A stretch of DNA of 63,271 nt, the filler included. It is 8 parts of 8 records of this genome, joined end to end, with 100 filler letters (N's around TTAATTAATTAA, not from the genome) between each part and the next. Parts side by side here need not be neighbours in the genome. Positions count along the whole stretch, not along the records: positions 19,776 to 26,742 come from SRR31156797_39744; 7 more parts are not named here. One strand, given 5' to 3'. Position numbers and translations under genes: made by a program. The notes beneath the pieces are model-generated. The model saw only the letters and a list, made by a program, of their open reading frames with translations. It was not told where the DNA came from and ran no database searches. The number at the start of each line of letters is the position of its first letter. Within the stretch, counting starts at the first letter, position 1. Positions 4,441 through 26,742 of the stretch are shown here, piece by piece.

Positions 4441-4468
4441 CTTACTGCTTACTGTTTACTGCATACTG
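4441..4468. repeat. Heptamer tandem repeat (YWTACTG x4)
   Basis: cttactg-cttactg-tttactg-catactg abutting the stop of the 4470-6422 gene. Confidence 0.75.
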
Positions 4469-4469
4469 T

Positions 4470-6422: not shown

Positions 6423-6428
6423 GCCGGA

Positions 6429-8763: not shown

Positions 8764-8863
8764 NNNNNNNNNNNNNNNNNNNNNNNNNNNNNNNNNNNNN
8801 NNNNNNNTTAATTAATTAANNNNNNNNNNNNNNNNNNNNNNNNNNNNNNNNNNNNNNNNNNNN
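8764..8863. other. Artificial contig spacer
   Basis: N44-TTAATTAATTAA-N44, stops in all six frames. Confidence 0.99.
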
Positions 8864-9102
8864 GTGATCGCCGAGATATTGGCCGTAGCGATGATGGAAA
8901 GGTTGATTCCTCCCGTCAGCATGGAGATCATCATGGCCAGGGAGAGAAGCCCCAGTTCGGGCAGCTGAAACGCCATTCCCTGGAAGGTGCTTAGCTGGAG
9001 AAAGTTCCTCGGGCTCAGTACGACCATCAGAAGAAAGGAGCCTGCGAGGATAAGGCTGAGAACTTTAATCTCAGGTTTTTTCTTGAAATCTGTTATTAAC
9101 AT
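8864..9102 (-). CDS. Sugar ABC transporter permease 2 (3' truncated)
   Basis: NFLQLSTFQGMAFQLPELGLLSLAMMISMLTGGINLS, RbsC/BPD_transp_2 signature. Confidence 0.9.
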
Positions 9103-10109
9103 ACCGACTCCTGTTCATTCACATCGATAATGGCGGTGCGCCTCGACTTCTTCATTCCCTGAAACGAACTGAATCCGATACTGATGAGAATCACAGCCCC
9201 CACAAGGAACTCGTACCACACCGCCGGAACGGCCATAAGGGTCAATCCGTTCTTCAATATGGCCAGGAGAGCGACCCCCAGGAACGCTCCGAAAACGCTG
9301 CCCTTGCCGCCGGCCAGGCTGGCGCCCCCCAGAACGACGGCCGCGATGACATCCAGCTCCTTTCCGACGATAGAGTTGGGAGCCACCGTCTGGACGAGAA
9401 GGGCCTGCACCACACCGGCCAGGCCGGACAGAAAGCCCAGGAAGGAGTAGACGAATGTTTCGGACAGGAACACATTGAATCCGACCCGCTCGGCCGATCT
9501 CCGATCCCCTCCCAGCGCATAGATACTGCGCCCCAATATGGTAGAGCGAAGAATGAATACGGCCGCGACGATGACCAGGAACCAGATGACGGTTATGATC
9601 GACAGCCCGTAGGGATTCCCGCCGGCATTGTAGAGCGTAAAGAGGCGGATCTCAGCAAACGACCGGAACCAGTCCGGCAGGGAGTAGATCCACTTGCCCC
9701 CCGTAATCACAATCAGGAATCCGTAATAGATATTCATCGTCGCAATCGTTGTGATAATGGGAGGGATCCTGAATGTGTATATCAGGTATCCGTTGAGAAA
9801 CCCGAGAGCCGTACCGATGGCAACGGCGATGATCACGGCCGTAAATATGTTCCCGCCCATTCGGATGATCGTTACGGCCATTATGTATTCGCTCACAGTC
9901 GCGATGGCCGGAAAGGAGATATCGATCCCTCCTGAAATCAGCACGAACAAAACGCCTATTGCCATGATCCCCACAAAGGAGTTGCTTTTCAGGAGATCGA
10001 ACATGTTCTCAGCGGTAAAAAAGTTTGCGTTCTTCGTTGTGATGACAATGGAAAGGAGCACAATGATCATCAATAAATATGTCTCATGGTATTTAAAAAA
10101 CTTCTTCAC
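9096..10109 (-). CDS. Sugar ABC transporter permease 1
   Basis: ISGGIDISF, IPPIITTIA, GRSIYALGG, ELDVIAAVVLGGASLAGGKGS. Confidence 0.95.
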   Translation of the reverse strand: MKKFFKYHETYLLMIIVLLSIVITTKNANFFTAENMFDLLKSNSFVGIMAIGVLFVLISGGIDISFPAIATVSEYIMAVTIIRMGGNIFTAVIIAVAIGTALGFLNGYLIYTFRIPPIITTIATMNIYYGFLIVITGGKWIYSLPDWFRSFAEIRLFTLYNAGGNPYGLSIITVIWFLVIVAAVFILRSTILGRSIYALGGDRRSAERVGFNVFLSETFVYSFLGFLSGLAGVVQALLVQTVAPNSIVGKELDVIAAVVLGGASLAGGKGSVFGAFLGVALLAILKNGLTLMAVPAVWYEFLVGAVILISIGFSSFQGMKKSRRTAIIDVNEQESVC

Positions 10110-10113
10110 TTGC

Positions 10114-11616
10114 TCATCCTTTCTCAGACATCTCGATACAGTTCAGAATATCTTCTTCCTGAACATCTTCGGTGATAAACTCATCAACGATCCGCCCGCG
10201 ATTCATAACCAGAACACGATGGCAGCTGTTCAGCACCTCCGGAACCTCATCGGATATAAGGATCACCCCCAGCCCCTGGTTCGCCAGCGTCTTGATGGAC
10301 TCATGGATGCTGCCCTTCGCCGCAACGTCGACGCCGACGGTAGGACCGTCGAGTATGAGAAGCTTCGGATCGGTGGCAAGCCACTTCGCGATGACCACTT
10401 TCTGCTGGTTTCCCCCGGAAAGGGTAGAAACGGCGGACTCCACTGACGGGATCTTGATATTGAAGCTGGAGACCAGATCGGAGACCCGGGCATCCTTCTT
10501 GCCGTGATCTATAATAGAGAATCTCTTTACGAGCCTGTCGATAATGGTTACAACGGTGTTCCTGGCCACTGACTGTTCCATAACAAGGCCCTGGACAAGT
10601 CTGTTTTCCGGGACATAGGCCACCCCCTTCTCAACGGCCTGCTCAACCGATTTGAAATGGATGGCTTCGCCGTTCAGCGTCACCGATCCCGTATCGAAGG
10701 GATTCATTCCGAACAGGGACATGGCCAGCTCCGTTCTGCCTGAGCCGAGCAGCCCCGTAATCCCCAGGATCTCACCAGGGTAGAGACTGAAGCTGATATC
10801 CTTGAAATTGTCTTTTTTGGATAGGGAATCGACCTTCAGGAGGACCCTGTCCGAGGAGCGCTGTCCCTCGTTCTTCGAGTACTCAAAATTCCCGCCGGTC
10901 ATCAGATATTCGATCCTCTTGCTGTCCAGTTCGGACGCGGGATAACAACCGATTTCAACACCGTCCCGGAGAACCGTAACCTGTTCCGCGACGTCCATGA
11001 CCTCATTGAGCTTATGGCTTACGAAGATGATCGCTATGCCCTTCTGCTTAAGATCCCGAACGACATTCAAAAGAGCGCTGATCTCTTTCTTCGTCAACGC
11101 CGTCGTGGGCTCATCCATTATGAGCAGCTTCAGATCGCCTGTTAAGGCTCGACAGATGGCAATCAGCTGCTGATCCGCAATAGAGAGATCTCCCACCATG
11201 TGGTCCAGGGGTATATCGATATGGATTCGCTCCATGGCCTTGCGGGCGATGTCGACGTACTCTCTGCTGTTCATAAGCTTTCTGCTGCCGGATATCATAC
11301 GGCTGAGTCCTATATTCTCAGCTACGGTCAGATTGGGAAACAGAGAAAGATCCTGGTAGATCACCTCGATCCCTTCGTGTATGGATTCGATGGAACTCCT
11401 GTTTTTACTCAGCACTCCATTGATAAAGATCTCGGAACCTGCTTCAGGAGTCTCAACACCAGAGATGATCTTGATCAATGTGGACTTCCCTGATCCGTTT
11501 GTACCGGCAAGGCAATGCGCCTCGCCGGCGTGAATTTCAAAATTGACACTGTCTAATGCCTGAACACCAGCGTAGCGCTTACTGATATTCTTCATTGTCA
11601 GAAAAGCAGAGGACAT
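10114..11616 (-). CDS. Sugar ABC transporter ATP-binding protein (two NBDs, RbsA-like)
   Basis: GTNGSGKST, LIMDEPT, LSGGNQQKV; start placed at ATG 11616 after a GAGGT SD. Confidence 0.95.
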   Translation of the reverse strand: MSSAFLTMKNISKRYAGVQALDSVNFEIHAGEAHCLAGTNGSGKSTLIKIISGVETPEAGSEIFINGVLSKNRSSIESIHEGIEVIYQDLSLFPNLTVAENIGLSRMISGSRKLMNSREYVDIARKAMERIHIDIPLDHMVGDLSIADQQLIAICRALTGDLKLLIMDEPTTALTKKEISALLNVVRDLKQKGIAIIFVSHKLNEVMDVAEQVTVLRDGVEIGCYPASELDSKRIEYLMTGGNFEYSKNEGQRSSDRVLLKVDSLSKKDNFKDISFSLYPGEILGITGLLGSGRTELAMSLFGMNPFDTGSVTLNGEAIHFKSVEQAVEKGVAYVPENRLVQGLVMEQSVARNTVVTIIDRLVKRFSIIDHGKKDARVSDLVSSFNIKIPSVESAVSTLSGGNQQKVVIAKWLATDPKLLILDGPTVGVDVAAKGSIHESIKTLANQGLGVILISDEVPEVLNSCHRVLVMNRGRIVDEFITEDVQEEDILNCIEMSEKG

Positions 11617-11654
11617 TGTTGTTACCTCATTGACTTGTAGTTTATTGAGCCGAC

Positions 11655-11678
11655 CCCCTGTGGATAATTCCACAGGGG
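11655..11678 (-). terminator. Stem-loop downstream of the SBP gene (mRNA stabiliser or partial terminator)
   Basis: CCCCTGTGGA-TAAT-TCCACAGGGG perfect 10-bp stem between the SBP and ATPase genes. Confidence 0.6.
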
Positions 11679-11696
11679 TATATTTTTAATTAAATG

Positions 11697-12695
11697 TCAG
11701 AAGCCGAAGCTGTCAACATTATCCTTAGTGATGTCGATGACAGCATCCACCTTGATAACATCTCCGTCCAGTTCCACTTTTCCAAGTCCGGGGATTTCCA
11801 TCCCGGCCGTAATCGCCTTGCCGTCTACCAGCTGCTTTGCGATCCAGGTCATGGCAAATCCGGCATCCTTGGGATCCCACAGAATGCCATGCTGCATGGA
11901 GCCTTCCTTAAGATAGGGGGCCGCATGATCGGGGAGAACCGTACCGACAACGGAAATTTTCCCGGCCAGCCCCTTCTCTTTCAGAGCCTGAGCGGCCCCC
12001 GGAGGGCCAAGGCTGCCAAATCCGATAATGCCCTTAAGATCGGGATAGGTCTTTATAAGCTCGAGGGTCTTCTGCTTCGCCAGCTCCTGATCCTCACCGC
12101 AGGGGATCCTCTCGGTAACCAGCTCGAGATGGGGATACCTCTCCTTGGCATATTTCAGACCTTCATCGGCCCAGAGGTTATGAAGGGGAACGGTCAGACT
12201 GCCGACAAAGATGGCGTACTGACCGGAATCGCCCATGTTCTCTACCAGCATGTCCCAGAAATGACGACCGAACCTGACGTTGTCGATCAGCTCGATATCA
12301 TAGTCCTTGCCTCTCTGATCGGGAGACTCATGGGTGATAATCCTGATGCCCTTGTCGGCGGCCTTCTTGAAAGCCGGTTCAAGAGCATTGGCATCGTTGG
12401 GGGTTATACAGATCGCGTCAACGCCCTTGTTGATGAGATCCTCAACCATCTTCACCTGCTGGGCGGGATCGGCGTCCGAGGGACCGATCTGATAGGCCTT
12501 TACGCCCAGTTCCTTATCCGCCTGCTTGACTCCTTCTTCCAGCCTGTTGAACCACGGAATGCCTGTGATCTTCACAACAGTCGCAATCTCGGGCTCTCCC
12601 GCTCCCGCCTCGCTTTGTCCACCGGCAAACAATGACGGCAAAACCAAAAAGAAACAGAATGAACCGACGAGCACATGTTTCAGAAAGCATTTCAT
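11697..12695 (-). CDS. Sugar ABC transporter substrate-binding protein (LsrB/RhaS-like family)
   Basis: VVKITGIPWFNR, DADPAQQV, LWDPKDAG; spirochaete-style SLFAGGQSE signal region. Confidence 0.9.
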   Translation of the reverse strand: MKCFLKHVLVGSFCFFLVLPSLFAGGQSEAGAGEPEIATVVKITGIPWFNRLEEGVKQADKELGVKAYQIGPSDADPAQQVKMVEDLINKGVDAICITPNDANALEPAFKKAADKGIRIITHESPDQRGKDYDIELIDNVRFGRHFWDMLVENMGDSGQYAIFVGSLTVPLHNLWADEGLKYAKERYPHLELVTERIPCGEDQELAKQKTLELIKTYPDLKGIIGFGSLGPPGAAQALKEKGLAGKISVVGTVLPDHAAPYLKEGSMQHGILWDPKDAGFAMTWIAKQLVDGKAITAGMEIPGLGKVELDGDVIKVDAVIDITKDNVDSFGF

Positions 12696-12766
12696 CTCTT
12701 AGACTCTCCTTTATAAAGGGTATTTATTATTTTCCTGGTACGGATACCAGGAAAGTAACAACTGAT

Positions 12767-13423
12767 TTATTTCCCCTGACCGTAATGGTTCCTGGCGAAA
12801 TCCTGCATCGCCGCAATATCCTCAGGGGAGATCAATTGGGGAGTTCCGATGGAACGGGCCAGGATATAGATCTGTGCCGATTTTTCAACCACAAAGATGA
12901 TCTTCATAGCCGCATCGAAATCGCCTCCCACACAGATCGTTCCATGGTTGGGAACCATGACAGCATTGCGGTCGCCCAGGGCTTTCACCACGTTCTCCGC
13001 CAGTTCGGGAGTCCCCGGCAGGGCATAGTCGCAGTTGATAATCCTGTCTCCCACAATCTGAACGAAGTCTTCACTTATACCGGGAAGATCTTCGTTGAGA
13101 ACGCCGAACACGCTTGAGTAGATAGGATGGGTATGGATGACCACATTCACGTCAGGTCTGTTATTCATAATGGAGATGTGAAAATTGAACTCTATAGAGG
13201 GCTTTCTCTTTCCCTCCACGACCTCAAAATTGCTGTTCATGATAACAACATCGTCTACTGTGATATCCGGATAGGGCATCCCGCTGGGTTTTATATAGAT
13301 CAATCCGGTCTCGGGATCTCTGATACTCAGATTTCCCCATGTTCCCACTGTCAGTCCCTGACTGAAGAGCTTCATCCCACCGTCAACGATGGCCTGTTTA
13401 AATGTCTTCTTACTATTGCTCAA
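12767..13423 (-). CDS. Class II aldolase/epimerase (FucA/AraD family)
   Basis: GTWGNLS, IKPSG, KPSIE..FH, VIHTHP, NHG metal-binding His motifs; TTG start after AAGGA. Confidence 0.9.
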   Translation of the reverse strand: MSNSKKTFKQAIVDGGMKLFSQGLTVGTWGNLSIRDPETGLIYIKPSGMPYPDITVDDVVIMNSNFEVVEGKRKPSIEFNFHISIMNNRPDVNVVIHTHPIYSSVFGVLNEDLPGISEDFVQIVGDRIINCDYALPGTPELAENVVKALGDRNAVMVPNHGTICVGGDFDAAMKIIFVVEKSAQIYILARSIGTPQLISPEDIAAMQDFARNHYGQGK

Positions 13424-13443
13424 AATATCTTCCTTAAAATCGA

Positions 13444-13483
13444 ATGTTACATTAGTATCATTAATGTGGTACTATAGTAACAT
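13444..13483. promoter_or_regulatory. Candidate DeoR-family operator (imperfect palindrome)
   Basis: ATGTTACATTAGTATCA...TGGTACTATAGTAACAT in the divergent intergenic region. Confidence 0.45.
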
Positions 13484-13574
13484 CCTAGGTTATAACTGTC
13501 AAATTATTAATTCAACTATTGCTATTAATATAATTTTGCTAGTAATCTAGCGCCTATACCGGAGTGAGGAAGCA

Positions 13575-14349
13575 ATGAACGCCAAACAGGAAAGGATTGA
13601 GAGGATTCAGAGTATGATCAGGGAGTCTCAGTCCCTCTCGATACGCAAGCTCTCAGAACTGCTGGATGTTTCCGTTATGACAATAAGAAGAGACATTGAC
13701 GGTATTCTCAAGGATCCGGACATTCAGATGATTAGGGGCGTGTTCCTTTACACTCCGTTTCAGGAGGCTGAAGAAAACTCGAACTACTCAGTTATATCCG
13801 CATCGACGGAACATAAGGAAGCGAAACAACGCATTGCCGATGAAGCAGTTAGAATGATAGAGCCCAATGACCACATCCTTTTGGACGCCGGCTCGACGAC
13901 CGAATTCCTGGCGAAAAGCCTTCCAGACGACAGGACCCATAACGTACTCTGCTTCAGCCTGAACATCCTGAACATCATACTGGCGAAGAAGGAATCATTC
14001 GTAACGATTCCCGGAGGGAAGTACCACAGCAGCTCAATGATGTTCGAAAGCCGGGAAGGTATTGAGCTGGTAAAGAACTCGAGGGTGAATAAGGCATTCA
14101 TCTCGGCCAGCGGCGTTAATCTCAGGCTGGGAGCGACGTGCTCTGCTGAGTTTGAAAGGGAATTGAAAAAATCCGCCCTCGCATCGGCACAGACGAGGAT
14201 CCTGCTGGTGGATTCTTCAAAATTCAATAAGGTCCAGAGCTTGTATTTCGCTGATCTGAAGAATTTTGATATCATTGTAACAGACAAGGATATTCCGGAT
14301 GAGATCGCTGAGGAAATCAGGAAGTGGGATATCGGGCTGAGGATCGTTT
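13575..14349 (+). CDS. DeoR/GlpR family transcriptional regulator (stop not reached)
   Basis: HTH LLDVSVMTIRRDI, ILLDAGSTT, LLVDSSKF, IIVTD. Confidence 0.95.
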
Positions 14350-14449
14350 NNNNNNNNNNNNNNNNNNNNNNNNNNNNNNNNNNNNNNNNNNNNTTAATTA
14401 ATTAANNNNNNNNNNNNNNNNNNNNNNNNNNNNNNNNNNNNNNNNNNNN
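14350..14449. other. Artificial contig spacer
   Basis: N44-TTAATTAATTAA-N44. Confidence 0.99.
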
Positions 14450-15760
14450 CGCTTCGACATCCTCTAACAGGCTCTTGTCGATAGGAACGCGTTCGCCGGA
14501 AATAACCAATTCGACTTCTTTTTCCATTTTATGAGAAATATCGCGAACCAGGCGAGGAAACTTCTTGAGGATATTGTCCATTTCCACCTGGCGAACTTCC
14601 ATGATTGACTTCTGTAAGTTTATTATGTCGTTAGAAATAGATCTATTAACCGCTGCGAAATCCCTTACCAGCGCCGGAGCAATTCCTGCTTTTCTGAAAG
14701 AATACTGGAGATGATTCAGAATCTCGGATTGAGTGATCAACTTACCGACCGAATCAAGAAAATGGTCGACCTTTTTCTCATCAACACGGATTGTTTTTAC
14801 CTGGGACACCGAAGTCGGCTTTTCGACGGCCAAATCCTTGGGGCCTGAATCATCAACCGCCGCATCACGGCGTTCGGAACCTTCTGATTCAGTCTGCAGT
14901 TGATCCTTGATATCCTCCAGGATCATATTGAAAAACTCGATAACCATGGCGTCTATTTCCAGGGTTTTTTCCCTGTACATGTCTATCCCGTCGGAAAGTT
15001 CGGCCAGAACGCCCATGATATCTTCTTCCGCAACTTCAAAAAGCGACTTGATCATTTCGTCAAGGGCTTTGAAGAAATCGTCAATATCGGCATCGGAAAA
15101 GGCGCCGGATTCAAACTTTTCCAGCCCTGATTCAAATGATAGTATGTGTGAAGTGACATCAACGCCCTGGTAGGTGTATTTAATGCCGCTTGCAGTTTCG
15201 TCTAAGGATAATTGATTGATAATGTTCGACAACTCTGCCATGTACCTGCGCAGTCGCTGAGTGTCGATTTCATCAAGGGATGCAATGAGCGAATCGAGTT
15301 CACCGAGAAGATTGCCTGCTGCTTCAACGAAAGCATCTTCCCGGCGAGTTATCATTTCGAGTTGGTGGTTGATCTCTTCTATGAACTGGGCGTGTTCCGG
15401 AGTCAGATTTATATAGCTTATATCCTCTTCCAGGCGGATTATCACGTCGCGGAATATATCGTTCCCTCTGAACAACAATTCCACGATTTTCGGGCGCCGC
15501 TCAAGGATCGAATTATCCTCATCGATGATTTGCATAAGATCTTCCAATTTGTGGGCAATGTGGCCAATGTTGTCCACATTGAACATTTTGGAAGAGCCTT
15601 TGAGAGAATGAAGATGCCTGAAAAGAGAGAATATAACCTCGCTGTTGGCGGGGTCCTGCTCGATAGCCACCAATTCAGTGTCCAGGATGCCGATTGTCTC
15701 CCGAACCTCATCCTTGTATTGTTCAAACAGTTCAGCCAGGCTTTCGTCGGCAATATCCAT
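14450..15760 (-). CDS. cheA: Chemotaxis histidine kinase CheA (3' truncated)
   Basis: Hpt FRHLHSLKG, dimerisation TIRVDEKKVD..LDSVGKL, kinase entry KFPRLVRDIS..KEVELVISGE..IDKSLLE. Confidence 0.92.
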
Positions 15761-15805
15761 TACTCACTCCAGAAAAGATCACTTATGTATCTGCTGATTA
15801 TCGCC

Positions 15806-16219
15806 TTACATATCCAATGCTTTTTTGATGGCCGTCATGACCTTTTCTTCATCATACGGTTTGAGAATGTATTGCTTTGCCCCAATTTTCAAGCATTTCA
15901 TGACCGTGCGTGCATCGGACACGGAAGAGGCCATGATTACTTTTGCTTCGGGATATCTTTCCATTATTTTTTCGAGGACTTCAGTTCCTCGCATTTTAGG
16001 CATGATAATATCAAGAGTCATCAAATCGGGATTAAGCTTCTGAAATAATTCTATGGCTTCAATTCCATCTTCGGCCATGCCGACCACATTAAAACCGTTG
16101 TCCGTGAAAAACTTGGCCAGCATGTTGCGCATGACAGGGGAATCATCAACTATCAGAACGCTTTTGGGATCGTCAGATGCAGATGCGGAGGATGTGCTTG
16201 TGGTCTGATCGTCAGTCAT
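15806..16219 (-). CDS. cheY: CheY-like single-domain response regulator
   Basis: VLIVDDS, MTLDIIMP, YILKPY; start at ATG 16219 after GGAGG; directly upstream of cheA. Confidence 0.85.
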   Translation of the reverse strand: MTDDQTTSTSSASASDDPKSVLIVDDSPVMRNMLAKFFTDNGFNVVGMAEDGIEAIELFQKLNPDLMTLDIIMPKMRGTEVLEKIMERYPEAKVIMASSVSDARTVMKCLKIGAKQYILKPYDEEKVMTAIKKALDM

Positions 16220-16613
16220 GTCTTGCCTCCCTGTGGATAAAATAACTATCGGCTTATTATACTGCGTCCGCCATAAACAATGAAAATCATATTTTGACAG
16301 ACACTTAATAATTATAAGCAATTAAAAGAAATGGAACAAGGGTTGCGGAACTTAATGAGAATTAATCCGGATTTTACGGCGGGTCTGCAGCCATCGTTTC
16401 ACCTGCCGAAGCCGCCCGAAAATTATGTTACAGGGCGGATGACGGCGGCACACCTGTTGGGGCGATTAGCAAACCGCCCCTATCAGGTCCGTGCAAGGGC
16501 TCCGCACCAATAGCGACCATGCGTGCACCCAAAGCTTGCGTCCCTGACGGGCATTCCTGAAATCAAGATTAAGACTGTAGCTTATCTATGTTGAATTAGA
16601 AAAGAGCTTGTAG

Positions 16614-16652
16614 AAAAAAACGACCCCATGCCCGTTAGCGTTCATGGGGTCG
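16614..16652 (-). terminator. Intrinsic terminator of the acs operon
   Basis: CGACCCCATG...CATGGGGTCG 10-bp stem followed by T7 on the minus strand, downstream of acsE. Confidence 0.75.
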
Positions 16653-16708
16653 ACTTCTCTGATTCCGTTCCCGTAAAAACGGGCGTTAACCGGAAAAATT
16701 AAGGTCTG

Positions 16709-17626
16709 TTAGACATCCAGCCATGATTCGCTGAACAGGCTGTGTCCCAGGATGACCTTGGCGGTCTTGACATAATCAACGGCTTCCTTGTCCATGGTGG
16801 AATAATCGTATTCCTGTCCGTCCATTACGCCGTAAACCAGGTCGACGATGTCCTGACGTTTTCCCCTGGCGATATCCATGAGAACGGAATCAAAAGCGTC
16901 GACGATACTGGCATACATGCCCTTTCTGGCCAGCATGCACATGTATGTCTGGTTAAGGATGGGGCGCAGGTGTTCGGCATTGCCGTTGGAAATGTTGGAC
17001 AGCCCGTTGGTGGAGCGGATGGGCTGGGCTTCAGGGTCCAGGGCGGCGGCGATATCCGGCAGCATGTCGAAGAACTCGAAGTTGTTCATGAGCTGTTCCT
17101 GCTGGATGTTTACCGGAGTAATAATAGGATCGATATAAATATGCTCCATGGGGATGCCGTGGCCCTGGGCGGCCATGATCAATTCCGTGGACCACTCGGC
17201 CCTTTCATTGGCGTCCCTGGCCATGCCGGTGGGACCCCACATCAGGGCCACCATATCCGCGTCGTGATCGGCGCAAATGGGCAGCATGGGTTCGTATCTT
17301 TCGGGCCGGCACATGATCGAGTTCATCATCGCCCTGTTTTTGCAGACCTTGAGGCCCGCGGCCATGGCGTCGATATTCGAGGTGTCCAGCACCAGCGGAG
17401 TGTCCGTGACTTCCTGAACGGTCTCGACGACCCAGGTCATCAACTCTTCGCCGCCTTTGCGGGCAGGTCCGAGGTTGATGTCGATCCAATCGACTCCGAT
17501 TTCGGTCTCTTTTTCGGCCATCTCCCGAATGGGGCCCGGATCTTTTTCCTTAAATGCCTTTCCGATCGCCCTGCTGATGACGTTCAGGTTCTCGCCGATG
17601 GTCTTCATATATTTGTTATCGGGCAT
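16709..17626 (-). CDS. acsE: Methyltetrahydrofolate:corrinoid iron-sulfur protein methyltransferase
   Basis: Pterin-binding barrel (IGENLN, WIDINLG, PLVLDTSN, IYIDP, GLSNISNG); follows acsC; GGAGG SD before ATG 17626. Confidence 0.9.
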   Translation of the reverse strand: MPDNKYMKTIGENLNVISRAIGKAFKEKDPGPIREMAEKETEIGVDWIDINLGPARKGGEELMTWVVETVQEVTDTPLVLDTSNIDAMAAGLKVCKNRAMMNSIMCRPERYEPMLPICADHDADMVALMWGPTGMARDANERAEWSTELIMAAQGHGIPMEHIYIDPIITPVNIQQEQLMNNFEFFDMLPDIAAALDPEAQPIRSTNGLSNISNGNAEHLRPILNQTYMCMLARKGMYASIVDAFDSVLMDIARGKRQDIVDLVYGVMDGQEYDYSTMDKEAVDYVKTAKVILGHSLFSESWLDV

Positions 17627-17654
17627 GGTCTGCAATCCTCCAACTGGTTTTTTG

Positions 17655-19004
17655 TTATGCTACTTTGAATTCTTTAAGGAACTTCGGAATATGCGCGGCC
17701 TCTCTCGGGCCGATTGTAATATTCCAGTCAGGCAGTTCTTCTTCCAGGTCGCCCATGATAGCCGCGGCGTAACCCGGAATAATCAGGGACCTGTGCTTGA
17801 CCTTATCCGCTATTCCGCATTTTTTCACGAACATGCCCACAGCGTCGCCGACAAACTTGCCGGCGGCCCAGGCTGTCAGAACCGATAATCCCTCGGTGTC
17901 CTGAATAAGCAGCCAGGCAGGTACGCGGCTGCCCTCTATCTCTCCGGAAACAATAAAGTATGTCAAGGAGAAATTCGAAGTGACCAGAACCGGTGAGTTT
18001 TCATCCGGGCCGTTAATGTCGTAGATACCCTGGCTCACGGTCATGGGTCTTTGCGGGTCGGTAAAGATATTCAGCCGTTCCAGCAGAAGCGGGAATATGG
18101 TTGAACCTTCGAAATCCGACATGACTATGATGCCGGTGTACTTGGCGATAAGCCCGGCGGCGATTGTAACCTGCATGGACAGGGAATCGGTCATTTCGCA
18201 GGGGAAGGCGATGGTCGGGAAGCCGAGGGAACGGTTCTGAGCCATCAATGCCGCGCGACGAATAGCCACGGAATCGACCAGGGACTGTTGTACGGTCCTG
18301 GAACCGCTGTCCAAAATCAGGTCTTTTAAACCCATTTCGGTCAGCTTGTCGGTAAGTTCCATGAGCGCGGAAACGTCGTCGGCTTTCACGGCCAGCGGAC
18401 ATCCGGCTTCCAGGGCCAATTTGCCCATGTCTTCAAAATTGTCGGCTGTGGCGGTATAAATAAGCGGATTGTAAGCGCCGACCGCTTCCAGGGCCTGTTT
18501 CATGACGGCCGGATCCTCGGACATCAGGATCAGACTGAGGTCGCATTTGTCAACTATCAGTTTTGCCGCGGAGGCGAATTTGGCGCCGTCGCCGGAAACG
18601 CATTTAAGAGCGATAAGTTCCGGTCTCAGGTTCAAACCGACGCGCTCATACTGATAGGCCATATAGCGCTTGCATTTTTCCTCGATCACGCCGGCATCGG
18701 CGTCATCAGAAATCAGGGCAGCCAGCCCCGGAGGATTGAAAAAGGTTTTTTCATGGCGAAAAAGGACGGTTTCTCCGCCTGTCTTGACCGCCGTATCCCC
18801 ATAACCGATAGTCAGCGGCCTGATCGGAGGTGCGGAAGCCGCTGATAGTTGTTCGCTTGATTCATCCGAAACATGGGGACAGGCGTCGAGTTCCGCCTTA
18901 CCCGACGCCAGGTTCATGGCAAAAGCCAGGCATGTCGGGGAACCGCAATCGCCGCAGTTCGTTTTTGGTAGAAGTTTAAAAATCTGAATTCCGGTCAGGG
19001 CCAT
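17655..19004 (-). CDS. acsC: Corrinoid iron-sulfur protein large (gamma) subunit
   Basis: LPKTNCGDCGSPTCLAFAM, GGETVLFRHEKTF, IFTDPQRP, SVLTAWAAGKF, GPREA. Confidence 0.97.
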   Translation of the reverse strand: MALTGIQIFKLLPKTNCGDCGSPTCLAFAMNLASGKAELDACPHVSDESSEQLSAASAPPIRPLTIGYGDTAVKTGGETVLFRHEKTFFNPPGLAALISDDADAGVIEEKCKRYMAYQYERVGLNLRPELIALKCVSGDGAKFASAAKLIVDKCDLSLILMSEDPAVMKQALEAVGAYNPLIYTATADNFEDMGKLALEAGCPLAVKADDVSALMELTDKLTEMGLKDLILDSGSRTVQQSLVDSVAIRRAALMAQNRSLGFPTIAFPCEMTDSLSMQVTIAAGLIAKYTGIIVMSDFEGSTIFPLLLERLNIFTDPQRPMTVSQGIYDINGPDENSPVLVTSNFSLTYFIVSGEIEGSRVPAWLLIQDTEGLSVLTAWAAGKFVGDAVGMFVKKCGIADKVKHRSLIIPGYAAAIMGDLEEELPDWNITIGPREAAHIPKFLKEFKVA

Positions 19005-19032
19005 CTTACTCTCCTCATCCGGCTATGGCTGT

Positions 19033-19057
19033 CCCCCGGTCCTTTTGGGACCGGGGG
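19033..19057 (-). terminator. GC-rich stem-loop between acsB and acsC (no U tract; likely stabiliser)
   Basis: CCCCCGGTCC-TTTTG-GGACCGGGGG. Confidence 0.55.
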
Positions 19058-19071
19058 CGCTTGTTCATTAT

Positions 19072-19675
19072 TTAAAGAATGGAATCCATCGTCAGTGCGG
19101 GATGTTCCTTTTCCTGCAGCCAGGGAAGGATTTCCTCTTCCGTGATTCCGACTGTCTCATCCGCGATACGGTCGATCAGGTCGGGGACTCCGAGTTCCTC
19201 TCCGCGCTTGATAATCCGTTCGCGCAATTCCTCTTTCAAGGATTTGGGCATCCAGACCATACGCAGGAGCCCGCCGTCGCCGGTCAGGAACTTTCTCTGG
19301 ATAATGTTGAATTTACTATGGCCGACAAAGCCCGAAGACTGTGCGCCGCCGCCCATAACACCGGCCAAGGTGGTGAACTTCATGCCGCACGGGGTTTCGC
19401 CCGTGTAATCGCGATGTACGGTCATAACGCCGTTGGCCGTGGGGACCAGGGCGGCGATACACTCGCAGCAACCGCAAGTGGTCATGGGATCGTTTACCAT
19501 GCTGTAAAAGGAGACGTTGGTTACAGCCTGGCGCGAAGCCTTGAAGATGAAATCATTGGCGCCTTTGAAAACGCCCATTACAGGATCCAGGACCTCGCCC
19601 TTTTCAATGGGCTGGTTGGGGCCGTTGGGATTGATTTCATAAGAAGCCTTGCAGTCCATCCAGTTGTAGGCGCCG
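19072..19675 (-). CDS. acsB: Acetyl-CoA synthase, C-terminal A-cluster domain (5' truncated)
   Basis: GAYNWMDCKA, PMTTCGCCECI, TPCGMKFTTLAG, RMVWMPK, HPAL. Confidence 0.96.
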
Positions 19676-19775: not shown

Positions 19776-19825
19776 GAAGTAATCGTTGATAATTTTGTGA
19801 TTTTTTGTTATCAAAACATTAAAAG

Positions 19826-20758
19826 ATGAATAATAAACAAAAGGCTCAATTGAATCAAGGGAAGGAATTAAATAAATTGAATAGCGATTACCCTGTATTG
19901 GCTGAAGATGCCAATTATATGGCGATTGTGACTCCAATGCTGACCTTGTATTCGGAAGTTTCTGATTTGGCTCCGCAACAAGAGGAGAGTTCGAAACAGG
20001 AAACGGAGCAAAAACAGATTTCAAAAGTTAGTCTTGAAGAGAATTGTTTAAGAATTTCTGACCTTATGGTTAGTTATGGATACCTGAAGGAGTTTGCTCC
20101 TTTTAAAACTATTGCGAATTGTTCTAAGAGCTGCCTGGCTGGCTTTTCTGCCATCGATTTAATTATTCATTCGCAGTACTTGCGAAATTTAATTGATGAA
20201 CATCAGCAAGAGAGTACTGATGCTGGTGTATCGCCAGAGTTGAAACAAAATTTGGTTGATAGTACTGCTGATTTTCAATTGAAGCAGAATGATCCGAAGG
20301 ATTTTATTTCTCAGCATAAGGCAATTACCAATCAAATTGATGTGAAATTGGAGAGATTTCAGGAATTGCTTGATTTTTCGTTGAATCGTTACATGAGGAG
20401 TAAGTATGAAAAGGCGAATCCGGAATTGTACAATGCCTATAGGGTAGCTGTTGATCTTGATTTATCGAAAGGCAAGGTGCACGCGCTAAAAGGTGTATTT
20501 ACAGATTCTGTTACGGGAGAGCCCGTAAAATCGGTTTTGATATCGATAGATGGAGGAAAGGCTGTAATGCATGCCAAACAAAGTGGAAAGTATTTTATAC
20601 CGAGTTTAAATTCGGGTGAACACGAGTTTACTTTTAGTCGCAAGCCTTATCAAACAGTTGTGCGAAATGTACTTACTTATCCGGATAAGTGTATTGAGAT
20701 GAATATAGAGTTTACACCCATTGAGATTGAGGAGGCTGTTTTAGATCCTGATGATTAA
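19826..20758 (+). CDS. Hypothetical protein: helical N-terminus plus carboxypeptidase-regulatory-like C-terminal domain
   Basis: 310-aa ORF; LKGVFTDSVTGEPVKSVLISI...GKYFIPSLNSGEHEFTFSRKPYQT. Confidence 0.75.
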   Translation: MNNKQKAQLNQGKELNKLNSDYPVLAEDANYMAIVTPMLTLYSEVSDLAPQQEESSKQETEQKQISKVSLEENCLRISDLMVSYGYLKEFAPFKTIANCSKSCLAGFSAIDLIIHSQYLRNLIDEHQQESTDAGVSPELKQNLVDSTADFQLKQNDPKDFISQHKAITNQIDVKLERFQELLDFSLNRYMRSKYEKANPELYNAYRVAVDLDLSKGKVHALKGVFTDSVTGEPVKSVLISIDGGKAVMHAKQSGKYFIPSLNSGEHEFTFSRKPYQTVVRNVLTYPDKCIEMNIEFTPIEIEEAVLDPDD

Positions 20759-20836
20759 TGAGGATGCTTTGTTGATATTTCGATATTAGCAGGCAGTTTT
20801 ACAGTATTTGCCCAAATGGAATTCAAATCGGTGATT

Positions 20837-20871
20837 AGGGGTCGTCAATATTTATTTGACGACCTTTTTTT
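20837..20871 (+). terminator. Intrinsic terminator
   Basis: GGTCGTCAA...TTGACGACC stem followed by T7. Confidence 0.8.
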
Positions 20872-21781
20872 AGTTTTAATGGGAAGAGCTTATTTATATC
20901 TTATAATATGTATTGTTTGGTTTACTCAATTTGTTAACTGTTAATGAATAGTTGATGATTTGGAGTATAGGTTAAAATAACTATTCTAGAGGCTTACCTG
21001 AGGGATGTAATTTTCTTGTTATGTAAGTTAAGTATAATAATAAGAAAACGGGATGATGAAAATGGATATATTTTACTATTACGACTCTATTGAAGCAAAA
21101 ACTCTATTGTGAGTAAAGCACCTTCAGTTTTGAAATCAAGATAATTAACGAATTGAATTGTGGAATAATAAAGTGTTAGAAGAAAAAAAGTAATTTCATA
21201 ATTATTCGTTGAAATGTATAGCCTAGTGTTTCATTATAAGAATTATGTGTGTGTCCGCAAAAAGAATTGTACAAGAAAAAAGAATTATTGGAAGATGTGA
21301 TTGTTGTGATGTAGAAGCTATTTGAAACTTCGTATGATTGCGATAGTTAGATTCATGGAATGTTACAAATATGATATTGAGGAATTATTTGAGATAATTG
21401 ATAAGAAAACCTTTTATCAACTTTATTGTGTATTTACTAAAGTGTATTCTTTGTTTCTTTAAATAACTTTAAGCTTTATGTAGAACGTTTATTAATAATA
21501 ATTATGCTTGTCTGGGTGTTGAATTATATATAACTTAATAAAATATTTCATAATGCTTAAAACATCTTAATCTGTCTAGTTTTTTCTCTGCAAATGTATC
21601 TACTCAAAAAAGCAGTGATACATCTAATATTTCGGTAATAGGAAAAATATTTTACTCATTTTATCGAAGTTTTTTGGTTTTGCAGCTGTACTAATTGTAT
21701 GAATTTTTATGCTTTGATATCGAGCTTAAAGGCGGAAACCGAAAAGCCTTAAATAGAGTAGGTATTTAAAATTTCATTATT

Positions 21782-21982
21782 ATGAAAAAGAAAAATTTAA
21801 ACAAAAAATTGGTTTTAAAAAAAGAAACAATCTCTAATTTAAACATGAGAAATGTAAAAGGTGGTGGTGTTACTATTCTTACTACATGTAATACTGTTAC
21901 TATTACAGCTGATTGCCTCACAGATGAGTGTTCACAACCGTGTATTATAGAGCAGCGCCCAACATTATCGGATTGTGTATAG
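21782..21982 (+). CDS. lanA: Class I lanthipeptide precursor peptide
   Basis: Leader with LxLxKx5L motif (LVLKKETISNL) and a GG site; 38-aa core with 5 Cys, 8 Thr, 2 Ser; directly upstream of lanC/lanB. Confidence 0.93.
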   Translation: MKKKNLNKKLVLKKETISNLNMRNVKGGGVTILTTCNTVTITADCLTDECSQPCIIEQRPTLSDCV

Positions 21983-22015
21983 CGTACATTTTTAGAATTT
22001 TTTTAAATATCAAAC

Positions 22016-22102
22016 TTAAGAGGTTGTCTCATAAGATTTTGATAACTCTCTCCTGTGCTCGCAGGATTTTAATTATCCGACTCTTGAGATAGCCTCTCTT
22101 AA
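22016..22102 (+). promoter_or_regulatory. Long stem-loop between lanA and lanC
   Basis: AGAGGTTGTCTCA pairs with TGAGATAGCCTCT; inner GATAA/TTATC and TCCTG/CAGGA arms. Confidence 0.6.
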
Positions 22103-22113
22103 ATTAAATCGTT

Positions 22114-23328
22114 ATGGATTGGGGAAAATTACAAAAAATAAATAGAACAGAAATTGAATCAAAACTTTCCCAGATCGAAGAAATATTAATATCGCAAAAA
22201 GAAGCATATGAGAGTGGGCAAGGGCTTATGGGGGGTAAGTTGGGAGTTGTCTTGCTTTTTTTATATTATGCTAAGTTAACAAATAAGCAAGAACCATATG
22301 ATTTTGGATTAGAATTAATATCTAATGTATTTGATGATATAAATAGTGGATTTAATTTTCATACACATGCAGGTGGTTTGGCAGGTATCGGTACAACATT
22401 AACTATACTTACTGAAGCAGATTTGTTAGATGCAGATTTAAATGAGATTCTAACTGGGCTAGATGAATATTTGTATACTTTAATGATATCTGAAATTCGG
22501 AATGGTAATTATGATTTTTTACATGGAGCAGTTGGTTTAGGGTTTTACTTCTTAAAAAGAAATACAAAAGATTCAAAAATATATCTGGCTGAGTTCATAA
22601 AAGAATTGAATAAAATTGCGACAAAAGACGAAGAAGGAATTAGATGGTTATCAGTTTTAGATCATAAGAAACAAACTAAAGGTTTTAATATTAGTTTATC
22701 GCACGGCTTGGCAAGTATCATTGTTTTTTTAAGTAAGCTTTATTCTGAAGGAGTTGCAAAAGAAAAGGTTTCAGAGTTGTTAAATGGTTCAGTAGAGTAT
22801 TTATTAAATCAACAGCAGGATGTTTCAAAATACAAGTCAAATTTTCCTTCATTAGTGAGCAAAGAGGAACCTTCAACTTATAGCAGATTAGCCTGGTGTT
22901 ATGGTGATTTGGGAATTGGAACAGCATTGTATGTAGCAGGATTAAATGCTAATAATGAAGACTGGAAAGAAAAAGGTATAGAAGTTGTTTTACATTCTAT
23001 AAAAAGAAGAGATGGAAAAGTCACCGGAGTGGTTGATGCCGGAATTTGTCATGGTACTGCCGGAATTGCCCACATGTACAACAGAATGTACTACTATACA
23101 GGCAGATATGAGTTTAGTGAAGCTGCAACTTATTGGTTTGAACAAACATTACAAATGGCAAAATTTGATGATGGCTTGGCAGGATATAAAGTCTGGAAAA
23201 CACCAGAACGTGGAGGTTTTCAAAATGAATATGGATTTTTAGAGGGAATTGCAGGGATTGGCTTAGCATTTATAAGTGCTATTTCAAATATTGAACCCAA
23301 ATGGGACGAGTGTCTTTTTTTGTCTTAA
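22114..23328 (+). CDS. lanC: Lanthionine cyclase LanC
   Basis: YDFLHGAVG, SLSHGLAS (catalytic His), LAWCYGDLG and GICHGTAG (Zn ligands), GFLEGIAGIGL, WDECL. Confidence 0.95.
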   Translation: MDWGKLQKINRTEIESKLSQIEEILISQKEAYESGQGLMGGKLGVVLLFLYYAKLTNKQEPYDFGLELISNVFDDINSGFNFHTHAGGLAGIGTTLTILTEADLLDADLNEILTGLDEYLYTLMISEIRNGNYDFLHGAVGLGFYFLKRNTKDSKIYLAEFIKELNKIATKDEEGIRWLSVLDHKKQTKGFNISLSHGLASIIVFLSKLYSEGVAKEKVSELLNGSVEYLLNQQQDVSKYKSNFPSLVSKEEPSTYSRLAWCYGDLGIGTALYVAGLNANNEDWKEKGIEVVLHSIKRRDGKVTGVVDAGICHGTAGIAHMYNRMYYYTGRYEFSEAATYWFEQTLQMAKFDDGLAGYKVWKTPERGGFQNEYGFLEGIAGIGLAFISAISNIEPKWDECLFLS

Positions 23329-23368
23329 TTGTAGTACACAATTTGTATTTCAATATTAAAGAATAAAT

Positions 23369-25606
23369 ATGAAAAAAAATAATTATAAGAGTTTTGATAA
23401 TTTTGTTCTTAGAGTGCCATTGCTGCCATTAAATTATATACAATCAATTTATACAAAAAAAAACACTGCTGATGAAGATCTAAAGAAGATCTGCGAAAAT
23501 TCAAAAATTCAAGAAGCTGTTTTCCTTGCATCTCCAATATTACATAGTGAATTGTTAAAATGGTTAAACAATGAACTTACAAATGCAAAAAAAATTGAAC
23601 GATTAAAAGAATCGCTTACTAAGTATTTATCACGAATGGGAAGTCGATGCACGCCATTTGGTTTATTTGCCGGTTATGGTTTGGGAAAAATTGGTGATAA
23701 AAACCAAATTGAGCTAGACGATGACCAAAAGTATTATGCACATCTAAGGTTAGATATGAACTATCTTTGTGCATTAGCTATAGATTTATCTAAAATTAAA
23801 GAGATCAAAGAGCAAATCAATTTTTTTCCTAATTCAAGTATATATAAATCAGGCGATAAATTGAGATATGTTGAATATCGTTACGATAATAGTAGAAGGA
23901 ATCATTTTGTAGTAGGTGTTGAAGACTCGGAATATTTACAACAAGTTATAAATACTTCAAAAGAAGGTGCTCAAATTTCGGATTTAGCTGATCTCTTGGT
24001 TGATAAAGAGATTTCGTTTGATGAAGCTAAATTATTCATAGAAGAACTTATTGATAGCCAATTGCTAATTAGTGAATTGGAACCATCGGTTACAGGAGCA
24101 GAGTTTCTTAATCAAATTATTGAAATTTTAAAACCTCTCAAAAATATTGATCACATTATTGATTTACTTCTAGAGTTTGAGAATGACATTGTTAATATTC
24201 GAAATAATGCAATTGGAATTTCAGCAGATAACTATAAAAAAATAATAGAGAAACTGTCAAAGCTTAAAACGAAATACGATATAAAATATTTATTCCAAAC
24301 TGATTTAGTAATTTCTGCTAAGGAATTAAAATTAAATTCTGATATTTCAAACGATGTATTAAAAGGCATTGAATTAATGAACAAATTAACGCCTAAGAGA
24401 ACTAACGAAAATTTATTAAAGTTCAAAGAAGCGTTTTATGAGAGATACGAAGAGAGAGAAGTGCCTTTGTTACAGGCGCTAGATGTTGAGTCAGGTGTTG
24501 GTTATGTTCAAGACATTGGCAGTGGAGATCTGAATCCATTAGTTGATGATATTGCATTACCTGTAGGTAAACTACAAAATGATTATAATATAAAATGGAA
24601 CAAAATACAGTCTCTTTTACTCAAAAAATATAATGAAACTTTATCGACAGGATTAAGTGAAATAGAAATTATCGACGAAGATGTTAAAGATTTTAATGCT
24701 AATTGGGATGATTTACCCTCTACCTTCAACGCAATGGTGGAAATTATTTCATCATCAAGGATTGAAAAGAAACCAATAATAAAATTTAATTCTGCTGGAG
24801 GGTCTTCTGCTGCTAATTTATTGGGTAGATTTTGTCATAGCAGCTCCGATTTATATAGCTACGTAAATAGAATTACAGCAACTGAAAAGGATATATTTCA
24901 AAATTCTGTTTTAGCTGAGATTGTTCATTTACCAGAATCAAGAACAGGAAACATCCTGCTAAGACCTCAATTAAGAGATTTTGAAATACCTTATTTGGCT
25001 AAGTCTTCGGTTTCAGAAGATAATCAGATTTCCATTAAAGATATAGTAGTATCAGTTAAAAATGGTAAGAAAGTAGTTTTGCGTTCAAAATCTTTAAATA
25101 AAGAAATTATTCCAAGATTAAGTAATGCTCATAATTTTTCTAATAATGCATTACCAGTATATCAGTTTTTATGTGATTTGCAAACTGAAGATGTAAGAGC
25201 TGGAGTTGGTTTTAATTGGGGAGCATTATCTAATGAATATGGTTATTTACCAAGAGTGAGATATAAAAATATTATATTATCTGAAGCTACTTGGAATATT
25301 AAAAAAGAAGAGATTAAGAAGATAATTGAAGCTAAAGATGATGCAAATATTGAAAAAGAAACTAAATTATGGAAAACGAGACTTAGTTTACCTGACTATG
25401 TATTATTAGCTGATGGAGACAATGAGCTATTGTTTCACTTAAATAATATGTTGTGTATAAAAACATTATTGTCATTAGTAAAAAAGCGAGCCAAGTTTCA
25501 GTTAAAAGAATTTTTGTTTAATTCAGAGGATGCAATGGTAAAAAGGAGGAAAGATAGTTTTACCAATCAAGTTGTGTTTTCTTTTTTCAAATCAATAAAA
25601 AACTAG
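23369..25606 (+). CDS. lanB: Lanthipeptide dehydratase, glutamylation domain (split LanB, part 1)
   Basis: FVLRVPLLP, EAVFLASP, SRCTPFGLFAG, LLGRF, RTGNIL, PRLSNAHN, YLPRVRY, DGDNEL; 745 aa, no elimination domain. Confidence 0.94.
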   Translation: MKKNNYKSFDNFVLRVPLLPLNYIQSIYTKKNTADEDLKKICENSKIQEAVFLASPILHSELLKWLNNELTNAKKIERLKESLTKYLSRMGSRCTPFGLFAGYGLGKIGDKNQIELDDDQKYYAHLRLDMNYLCALAIDLSKIKEIKEQINFFPNSSIYKSGDKLRYVEYRYDNSRRNHFVVGVEDSEYLQQVINTSKEGAQISDLADLLVDKEISFDEAKLFIEELIDSQLLISELEPSVTGAEFLNQIIEILKPLKNIDHIIDLLLEFENDIVNIRNNAIGISADNYKKIIEKLSKLKTKYDIKYLFQTDLVISAKELKLNSDISNDVLKGIELMNKLTPKRTNENLLKFKEAFYERYEEREVPLLQALDVESGVGYVQDIGSGDLNPLVDDIALPVGKLQNDYNIKWNKIQSLLLKKYNETLSTGLSEIEIIDEDVKDFNANWDDLPSTFNAMVEIISSSRIEKKPIIKFNSAGGSSAANLLGRFCHSSSDLYSYVNRITATEKDIFQNSVLAEIVHLPESRTGNILLRPQLRDFEIPYLAKSSVSEDNQISIKDIVVSVKNGKKVVLRSKSLNKEIIPRLSNAHNFSNNALPVYQFLCDLQTEDVRAGVGFNWGALSNEYGYLPRVRYKNIILSEATWNIKKEEIKKIIEAKDDANIEKETKLWKTRLSLPDYVLLADGDNELLFHLNNMLCIKTLLSLVKKRAKFQLKEFLFNSEDAMVKRRKDSFTNQVVFSFFKSIKN

Positions 25607-25615
25607 CAATTATAC

Positions 25616-26545
25616 ATGTACAATACAAAAGAGGTGCAAAAAATATCAAAACGTACTTTTGTAATAGGCGATGAGTGGCTTTATTATAAATTATATTCTG
25701 GACCAAAAACTTCTGATGAGGTACTAATTAATGCAATAAAACCATTGGTTGATGAGCTAATTGAGCATAAAATAATTGATAAATGGTTTTTTATACGATA
25801 TGCAGATCCTAAAGAGCACCTTAGGTTAAGGTTTCATTGCTGTAATCAGAAAAGTATTTTAACTATAATCAATTGTGTTAATACTTCATTAAAAACCTAT
25901 GTTGATGATGATTTAATATGGAAAATACAAATAGATACATATCAGAGAGAGGTAGAACGATATGGAGAAAATACAATTGAATTGTCAGAAGATCTATTCT
26001 TTCACGATAGTAAACTAATCGTTGATATGATTGATTTAATTGAAGGTGACGAGGGAGAAACGATTCGCTGGTTATTTGCCATGCGTGCAATTGATAGTTT
26101 ATTAGATGATTTCAAGTTTGATGACCAGCAAAAATTAATATTGTTGGAGAATCTTAAAGATGGATTTGCTAGAGAATATGGTATGAATAGGGTTTTAAAA
26201 TCACAACTTGACAAGAAATTTAGAACGGAACGACAATCTATAAATGATGTAATGAACAAAGAATTTGATTCTCAAAGCAAGATTAAACCATTGTTTGAGT
26301 TATTAAAACAAAAATCAACAAGAATAAGGTATATCTCTAATGAGATACTAAATATAGAAAAAAGAAATAAGCTCTTTCGTCCACTTAATGATTTATTGGG
26401 AAGTTACATTCACATGTTAATGAATAGGTTGTTTAAATCAAAACAACGTTTACACGAAATGGTGATTTATGATTTCTTATACAGATATTATAAATCGGAA
26501 ATTGCAAAAAAAATGAATAAACTTAAATTGGAAAAAGTTAATTGA
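25616..26545 (+). CDS. Lanthipeptide dehydratase, elimination domain (split LanB, part 2)
   Basis: EWLYYKLY, WFFIRYADP..HLRLRF, TYQREVERYG, FFHDS, SYIHMLMNRL. Confidence 0.94.
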   Translation: MYNTKEVQKISKRTFVIGDEWLYYKLYSGPKTSDEVLINAIKPLVDELIEHKIIDKWFFIRYADPKEHLRLRFHCCNQKSILTIINCVNTSLKTYVDDDLIWKIQIDTYQREVERYGENTIELSEDLFFHDSKLIVDMIDLIEGDEGETIRWLFAMRAIDSLLDDFKFDDQQKLILLENLKDGFAREYGMNRVLKSQLDKKFRTERQSINDVMNKEFDSQSKIKPLFELLKQKSTRIRYISNEILNIEKRNKLFRPLNDLLGSYIHMLMNRLFKSKQRLHEMVIYDFLYRYYKSEIAKKMNKLKLEKVN

Positions 26546-26742
26546 TATAACTTAACTACTAGCATATCATAATAATGGTAGCTTATGATAAAGGTGGAAA
26601 AGATAGGATAAAAAACAGGGAGTTGGAAAAGCTTCGACAAATAGGTATGTTACTTAGGATTAGATTGATAAAGTGATTGAAGTTTTAAAGAGTAAATAAA
26701 AATAATGCCTAAAAAAGTAACCGTTGCGCATCCACATAAAAT

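Follow-up and report, generated by a model that had tools for sequence, protein, structure and literature searches.

Positions 19776-26742 of the window (the whole stretch of DNA that was analysed, 63271 bases) form one contig that very likely carries the biosynthetic core of a Bacteroidota-type class I lanthipeptide pathway, located on an accessory island of a Marinifilaceae bacterium. The gene set is genuine but incomplete. It comprises a precursor gene (lanA), a cyclase gene (lanC) and a dehydratase divided over two genes (lanB), and lacks an exporter gene. As far as sequence can test it, the cluster fits both the class I lanthipeptide definition and that of the Bacteroidota L1a or pinensin type, a linked exporter apart. 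Its novelty is limited to the core peptide, which is unmatched; the enzymes and the layout are ordinary, and the cluster adds to a family that already numbers in the thousands. The four genes are as follows.

21782-21982, + strand: lanA precursor, 66 aa; NF038153 (lant_leader_L1a) at 30.3 bits, cut-off 22
22114-23328, + strand: lanC cyclase, 404 aa; PF05147 (LANC_like), E-value 1.1e-44, 152.9 bits
23369-25606, + strand: lanB glutamylation subunit, 745 aa; PF04738 (Lant_dehydr_N), E-value 2.3e-154, 515.5 bits
25616-26545, + strand: lanB glutamate-elimination subunit, 309 aa; PF14028 (Lant_dehydr_C), E-value 2.1e-76, 257.9 bits; TIGR03891, 258 bits

Families were assigned from Pfam and NCBIfam profile scores, which lie far above the cut-offs. 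An earlier reading of this DNA (the original prediction) had proposed co-directional lanA, lanC and two lanB genes with catalytic motifs, and its coordinates proved exact for all four open reading frames (ORFs), which run together along the + strand. LanC, which also gives a partial match to TIGR03897 over its C-terminal part (NCBIfam, 94.9 bits), carries the H, WCYG and CHG motifs. In an alignment to NisC, the LanC residues facing chain positions 135, 206, 274, 278, 279, 324 and 325 are D, H, R, C, Y, C and H; with a chain offset of six, these positions correspond to NisC D141, H212, R280, C284, Y285, C330 and H331. In particular, the NisC zinc ligands are matched by WCYG and CHG, and His212 by the histidine of an SHG stretch. 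The glutamylation subunit is identical to NisB at R83, R87, T89, D121, D299 and R464 (alignment to 4wd9). The HLRLR and QREVERYG stretches of the elimination subunit align to NisB, placing Arg, Glu and Arg at chain positions 789, 826 and 829, and its IHxxxNR stretch aligns to 9g04, the closest solved LanB. The aligned NisB residues and the remaining NisC residues have catalytic roles that we take to be those described in the structural work on NisB and NisC; His212 of NisC is named as catalytic in parts of PMC9993889. According to parts of Walker et al. 2020 (PMC7268733), Bacteroidetes contribute nearly a quarter of class I LanCs and these resemble LanM cyclase domains, which fits the partial TIGR03897 match.

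A LanB scan of species-representative genomes yielded 14 related loci. The three nearest belong to Labilibaculum filiforme (L001, 88% LanB identity), Marinifilum sp. RC60d5 (L002, 86%) and a Marinifilaceae metagenome-assembled genome (MAG; L003, 89%), so that the closest relatives are three Marinifilaceae genomes and the proposed Bacteroidota origin is borne out. Segment 21421-26538 gives a single unbroken alignment to L003 (87% DNA identity), and three isolate or MAG genomes keep the four-gene block 22094-26535 in colinear order. The order lanC, lanB-N, lanB-C is kept in all 14 loci. The split LanB of the original prediction is confirmed by the ATG of the elimination gene at 25616, 9 nt past the stop of the glutamylation gene at 25606, and by the same split in 14 of 14 loci; in 11 of the 14 the two parts occupy different reading frames, and two of the three same-frame loci, L002 and L003, have separate ORFs. 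The split is therefore an architecture, not a sequencing error.

Compared with L001-L003, the ratio of nonsynonymous to synonymous substitution rates (dN/dS) is 0.12-0.30 for the three enzymes (0.20-0.30 for lanC and 0.16-0.18 for the glutamylation subunit), indicating purifying selection. By these measures, all drawn from sequence, the cluster is real, intact and under selection. The two LanB subunits are unequally close to the relatives, the elimination subunit being 86% identical to L003 and 66-67% to L001 and L002, and the glutamylation subunit 85-89% identical to all three; the cluster is therefore a mosaic. The L001-L003 clusters share the order lanA-C-B1-B2, leaders that are 82-86% identical and a hairpin after lanA, whereas their cores differ from that of the contig and their flanks differ in every genome.

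The LanA leader (21782-21865, 28 aa) is MKKKNLNKKLVLKKETISNLNMRNVKGG and the core (21866-21979, 38 aa) is GVTILTTCNTVTITADCLTDECSQPCIIEQRPTLSDCV. The original prediction had described an LxLxKx5L leader ending in Gly-Gly, and both elements are found: the motif residues are L10-V-L12-K-K14-ETISN-L20, followed by K26-G-G28. It had also stated that a split LanB and such leaders typify Bacteroidota class I clusters, as parts of PMC7268733 likewise state; in particular, many Bacteroidetes class I LanAs have LxLxKx5L in place of FxLD and a GG end (Walker et al. 2020, PMC7268733, in part). Class I precursors from Marinifilaceae align with LanA along the leader. The core contains 8 Thr, 2 Ser and 5 Cys and carries a net charge of about -4; its monoisotopic mass is 4055.887 Da unmodified and would be 3875.781 Da with ten dehydrations. 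A mersacidin-type TxTxEC motif was considered for it and rejected, since the partly similar T19-D-E-C22 stretch is missing the first Thr.

From the families of these proteins, a pathway may be proposed. The 28-residue leader would dock LanA on the dehydratase, whose 745-aa subunit would move glutamate from glutamyl-tRNA(Glu) onto Ser and Thr of the core, and the 309-aa subunit would then eliminate glutamate to give up to 10 dehydroamino acids. The LanC zinc enzyme would add the five Cys thiols to dehydroamino acids, forming up to five thioether rings, and a C39 peptidase-ABC exporter, not on the contig, would cut the leader after Gly-Gly.

The leader is nearly invariant among the relatives, and it is the core that differs. 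A search of 5.8 billion proteins with whole LanA returned four relatives, the best at 54% identity and mostly through the leader, and a restricted protein search with LanA residues 27-66 alone returned zero candidates. Seven precursors whose leaders are nearly identical carry six different cores between them. The core resembles L001 and L002 solely in its C-terminal CSxPCxIExRPT...C stretch (15/36 identical), and P0001 looks like a fusion of the N-terminal half of L001 with the C-terminal half of the Marinifilum fragile peptide (27/44 and 29/43 identical). The DNA identity to L001-L003 is 89-92% in the leader and about 55% in the core, a level that is unalignable, while the enzyme genes are mostly at 86-91% (lanB-C is about 73% identical to L001 and L002, and lanC 78% to L002). 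A 1934-nt contig from a microbial-mat run (record 11) matches 20895-21858 and 22012-22647, with 183 other letters replacing the 153 in between; this interval is the core-coding part with a few flanking bases. The claim that the locus is a source of a new natural product stands in part: with the core unmatched in two protein searches it is fairly drawn, but the genes for export and leader removal are missing from the contig.

A regex for the leader found plausible LanAs in 12 of the 14 loci. Five of its matches were rejected as spurious, being antisense to lanA, inside lanC or without GG (L001 6909-7115 and 8483-8662; L002 9694-9885 and 8512-8691; L009 14777-14884). Two of the loci, L004 and L014, are Bacteroidota-type lan clusters whose MAGs bear the titles Thiohalospira sp. 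and Bifidobacteriaceae; L004 has an L1a leader as well, and the DUF805b motif described below. Both contigs are probably mis-binned.

Two RNA elements surround the precursor gene.

21729-21764, + strand: DUF805b RNA motif (Rfam RF02914), 52.4 bits against a gathering score of 35.6, E-value 5e-13, model positions 1-35 of 35
22019-22097, + strand: lanA-lanC spacer hairpin, minimum free energy -32 kcal/mol, z -4.24, as stable in 0 of 200 shuffles

The DUF805b RNA (clan CL00115), matched here at full length and 5′ of a lanthipeptide precursor, consists of a 4-bp hairpin, a conserved loop and a conserved 3′ tail that ends 17 nt 5′ of the lanA ATG. The copy is almost identical to the Rfam consensus. 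The motif also lies 17-24 nt upstream of lanA in L002, L003 and L004 and of each of three tandem lanAs in L012; none reaches the gathering score in the remaining ten of the 14 loci. DUF805b is not specific to lanA. It occurs above cut-off in 33 of the 97 genomes of the G001 family, with up to 8 copies per genome, and at 27 of the 30 best loci in that family (L038-L067) an ORF of at least 25 codons starts 10-27 nt downstream, with one more at 50 nt. The distance from motif to start codon is nearly fixed among these best 30, mostly 16-23 nt. Two of the lanAs are among the genes behind these 30 copies, as are two more Cys-rich peptides with GG leaders and mixed small proteins; the products 3′ of DUF805b are mostly unnamed, the named ones being DUF1842, an outer membrane protein beta-barrel, a Bor lipoprotein and TPR proteins, and there was no DUF805 protein among the 19 downstream proteins scanned. 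The stem positions covary among the G001-family copies, and the hairpin by itself is not unusually stable (z -0.81). No printed account of DUF805b gene contexts was found in the literature searched, which included the main text of the discovery paper (PMC5737381), where the term does not occur.

The fixed leader with a replaced core, together with the DUF805b motif, are the sole features that go beyond routine genome mining. Tentatively, and with the odds leaning against it, the locus may be a plug-and-play platform in Marinifilaceae, in which the enzymes, the leader and DUF805b are held fixed and the core segment is recombined between strains, either whole or by halves.

The spacer hairpin has a terminator-like apex (22051-22066) followed by a T run, and hairpins of differing sequence stand at the same place in L001, L002 and L003 (z -5.55, -5.16 and -2.88). 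By analogy with other lantibiotic operons, it is likely a partial terminator or a processing site. Transcription probably begins a short way 5′ of the DUF805b hairpin, and the spacer hairpin would, on the same analogy, probably damp expression after lanA and leave the precursor in excess of the enzyme mRNA. A scan for sigma-70-type promoters performed no better than shuffles (39 versus 33.9 +/- 5.5); no Bacteroidota-type TTTG...TAnnTTTG promoter was found near lanA, and the window holds 3 where 3.4 are expected.

Several observations weigh against this account of the locus. Exporter, peptidase, immunity and regulator genes are found neither on the contig nor on the other window contigs; specifically, there are no C39, S8 or LanFEG-type genes among 42 ORFs scanned on the latter. 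The nearest cluster, L003, has a transposase (integrase-core) fragment where L001 has its exporter. The last 197 nt of the contig resemble no relative's downstream DNA and enter a repeat, so that an exporter may be absent and not merely unseen. The cluster is absent from G069, the nearest species genome, where the only such cluster is a distant one (40% LanB identity); it is therefore dispensable. Compared with the lipid II-binding motifs given in parts of Walker et al. 2020 (PMC7268733), the anionic core shows no complete match, and antibiotic activity is thus not implied. Lastly, none of the listed sequencing runs with the stretch is an RNA run.

The original prediction had noted that no peptidase-transporter or immunity gene is visible and that the contig ends about 200 nt later, and this is accurate: none is on the contig, which ends 197 nt past the last stop codon. 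The end itself is a repeat.

26676-26742, unstranded: start of a dispersed repeat, with 19 matching places in G069 (83-100% identity; final 30-67 nt)

The repeat is about 340 nt long, with three copies in contig 18 of G069. In sequencing run X1, which contains a 6967-nt record identical to the contig and may be its source, the last 30 nt of that record overlap short records of about fourfold greater depth; together with the repeat matches, this indicates that the contig stops at an assembly-graph branch in the repeat. An origin of the repeat as a transposase remnant was dropped, as Pfam gave 0 families for its open frame. In the same G069 contig (L037), positions 3734-6466 contain three repeat copies in 2.7 kb, with an internal palindrome, which separate single unrelated genes (a YARHG-domain protein, a small membrane protein, an esterase/TPR protein and an HD-domain protein). 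The L037 repeats look like a cassette array, and the contig breaks at the first bases of such a repeat. Starts of the repeat in G069 are often near contig starts.

In L001, a C39-peptidase ABC exporter (735 aa), a PD-(D/E)XK protein and an HlyD protein stand directly behind the cluster, and homologues of the exporter and of HlyD occur no more than 10 kb away in 5 of the 14 loci. The L001 exporter gives a single tblastn match in the other window contigs, to an unrelated ABC ATPase (29%), which was rejected. In L004, a 44-residue match to the N-terminus of the C39 exporter (8640-8771) lies just after lanB-C, with a full exporter 4.4 kb further on; the fragment may be a rearrangement remnant.

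These features raise the question of whether the module is orphaned, its four genes intact and its exporter and peptidase lost in a rearrangement of the island beside mobile repeats, so that no mature peptide leaves the cell. The unfamiliar downstream DNA without an exporter, the dispersed repeat at the contig end, the transposase fragment at the same place in L003 and the absence of the cluster from the nearest species genome are all consistent with such a loss. However, the dN/dS values of 0.12-0.30 and the conserved catalytic residues favour continued use, and each of the genomes G001, G002 and G003 has two to four C39-domain genes elsewhere, making an unlinked exporter plausible; unclustered lanthipeptide proteases have been reported (PMC8960859, in part). 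Overall, an orphaned, non-productive module is improbable.

It is less probable still, and indeed very unlikely, that the split LanB serves a thiopeptide, a pyritide-like or a linear dehydrated peptide beside an incidental LanC-like gene. Such an assignment could appeal to the elimination subunit's match to TIGR03891, which is named for thiopeptide-type bacteriocin biosynthesis, and to the split LanB of thiopeptide pathways (parts of PMC7268733); but LanC retains intact zinc ligands, lanC stands beside lanB in 14 of 14 loci, the core has five Cys, and the contig has no YcaO, cyclodehydratase or second elimination-like gene. A chimeric contig of unrelated DNA, as might be suspected from a window of joined contigs of mixed GC and from repeated sequence at both contig ends, can be dismissed almost entirely, given the colinearity of 22094-26535 with three genomes, the one-piece match to L003 and the mat-run contig that bridges the start of the cluster's island. 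The biosynthetic core of a lanthipeptide pathway stays the preferred account of the locus.

The island status of this lanthipeptide locus follows from its surroundings. Upstream of the cluster, the contig carries a flank with the following features.

19776-20944, + strand: flank, 98.5% nucleotide identity to G069:C18:1250-2417; similarity stops at 20944
19826-20758, + strand: flank gene outside the cluster, 310 aa; weak CarboxypepD_reg-like Pfam match below cut-off; 99% identical in G069
20837-20867, + strand: terminator-like hairpin from a hairpin scan

The mat-run contig (record 11) covers 20895-21858 without a break and thereby spans the flank-island junction at 20944/20945. Among the 97 genomes of the G001 family, 11 have a LanB homologue (E<=1e-20), three of them at 86-89% identity and the others at 43% or less. 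The unlike flanks in every carrier, the absence from G069 and the 3 carriers among 97 genomes together define a patchily distributed accessory island. The flank-gene family (about 310 aa, with a weak CarboxypepD_reg-like end) is multi-copy: G069 has 6 matches, G003 has 10 and several further genomes have as many as 6. A second record in run X1 joins the first 30 nt of the contig to 20905-20939, skipping the gene at 19826-20758. In L003, a group II intron domain (2019-2094) lies upstream of the cluster, and cobalamin riboswitches (16629-16843 and 20516-20726) precede periplasmic-binding/FecCD transport genes downstream of it.

Contigs 95-99% alike to that of the cluster were found in three microbial-mat runs. 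The little or no cover over 21873-22105 in runs X3 and X4, and a flank contig depth above the cluster depth in X2-X4, were set aside as not usable as evidence. The window itself joins eight contigs through paired 44-N spacers, with a G+C content (GC) of 0.31-0.51; the cluster contig is 6967 bp long at a GC of 0.306 (30.6%). An adjacent low-GC contig has no match in G069, so that the window is not one organism and only 19776-26742 is usable as context. Two contigs of about 50% GC (8864-19675) encode a CO dehydrogenase/acetyl-CoA synthase delta subunit, a CheA-like kinase fragment and a sugar ABC system, and their source organism is clearly not that of the lan contig. On another, unrelated contig, a 264-aa ORF (54099-54893) matches RVT_3 (reverse transcriptase-like/RNase H-like).

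The cluster can be compared with known systems. The nisin pathway (NisA, NisB, NisC, NisT and NisP) has the same two-step glutamyl-tRNA-dependent dehydration and zinc-dependent cyclisation, and its active-site residues align with those of the cluster; in contrast, NisB is a single protein, and the sequence similarity to the cluster is low (E-values of 9e-18 and 2.6e-8). The nisin leader has FNLD and, in place of cleavage at Gly-Gly, is removed by the subtilisin NisP. Parts of PMC7268733 contrast FxLD with the LxLxKx5L leader. The pinensin type (family I 17, Walker et al. 2020), compared by description only, shares with the cluster the leader motif, the Gly-Gly end, the split LanB and the LanM-like LanC; a C39 exporter is present in some relatives, whereas the contig is without one and its core is unmatched. 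In the same source (PMC7268733, in part), a C39 protease is often encoded in Bacteroidetes class I clusters, and the split LanB is described as in pinensin. Runella limosa RuiA and Chryseobacterium sp. OV715 ChmA, likewise of Bacteroidota class I and compared by description only, belong to systems whose LanBs need the cognate tRNA(Glu) and glutamyl-tRNA synthetase (GluRS) for full dehydration in E. coli (Lee et al. 2023, PMC9993889, in part), which makes them a practical model for testing the cluster. A Runella product is listed in parts of Ayikpoe et al. 2022 (PMC9576775).

Among the papers listed by a literature search, none connects Marinifilaceae with lanthipeptides. The class I lanthipeptides of Bacteroidota that have been produced or isolated are few, namely the pinensins, the Runella and Chryseobacterium peptides and, reportedly, judging by the title of a reference, Pedobacter peptides. 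As of 2020, the pinensins alone had been isolated from Bacteroidetes, according to parts of PMC7268733; the Runella and Chryseobacterium peptides came with later work (PMC9993889 and PMC9576775). The unmatched, anionic, Thr-rich core with its five Cys would make a sensible subject for co-expression with tRNA(Glu)/GluRS by the route already published. What the locus offers beyond a further cluster is the precise pattern of a fixed leader and a replaced core among near-identical clusters, and DUF805b before lanA genes, neither of which is very surprising. If the locus does act as a platform for exchangeable cores, core swapping would be directly observable in natural mat populations, and the orphan Rfam motif DUF805b would gain its first functional context, its hairpin bringing the precursor into one regulon with numerous small proteins that are secreted, membrane-bound or rich in Cys.

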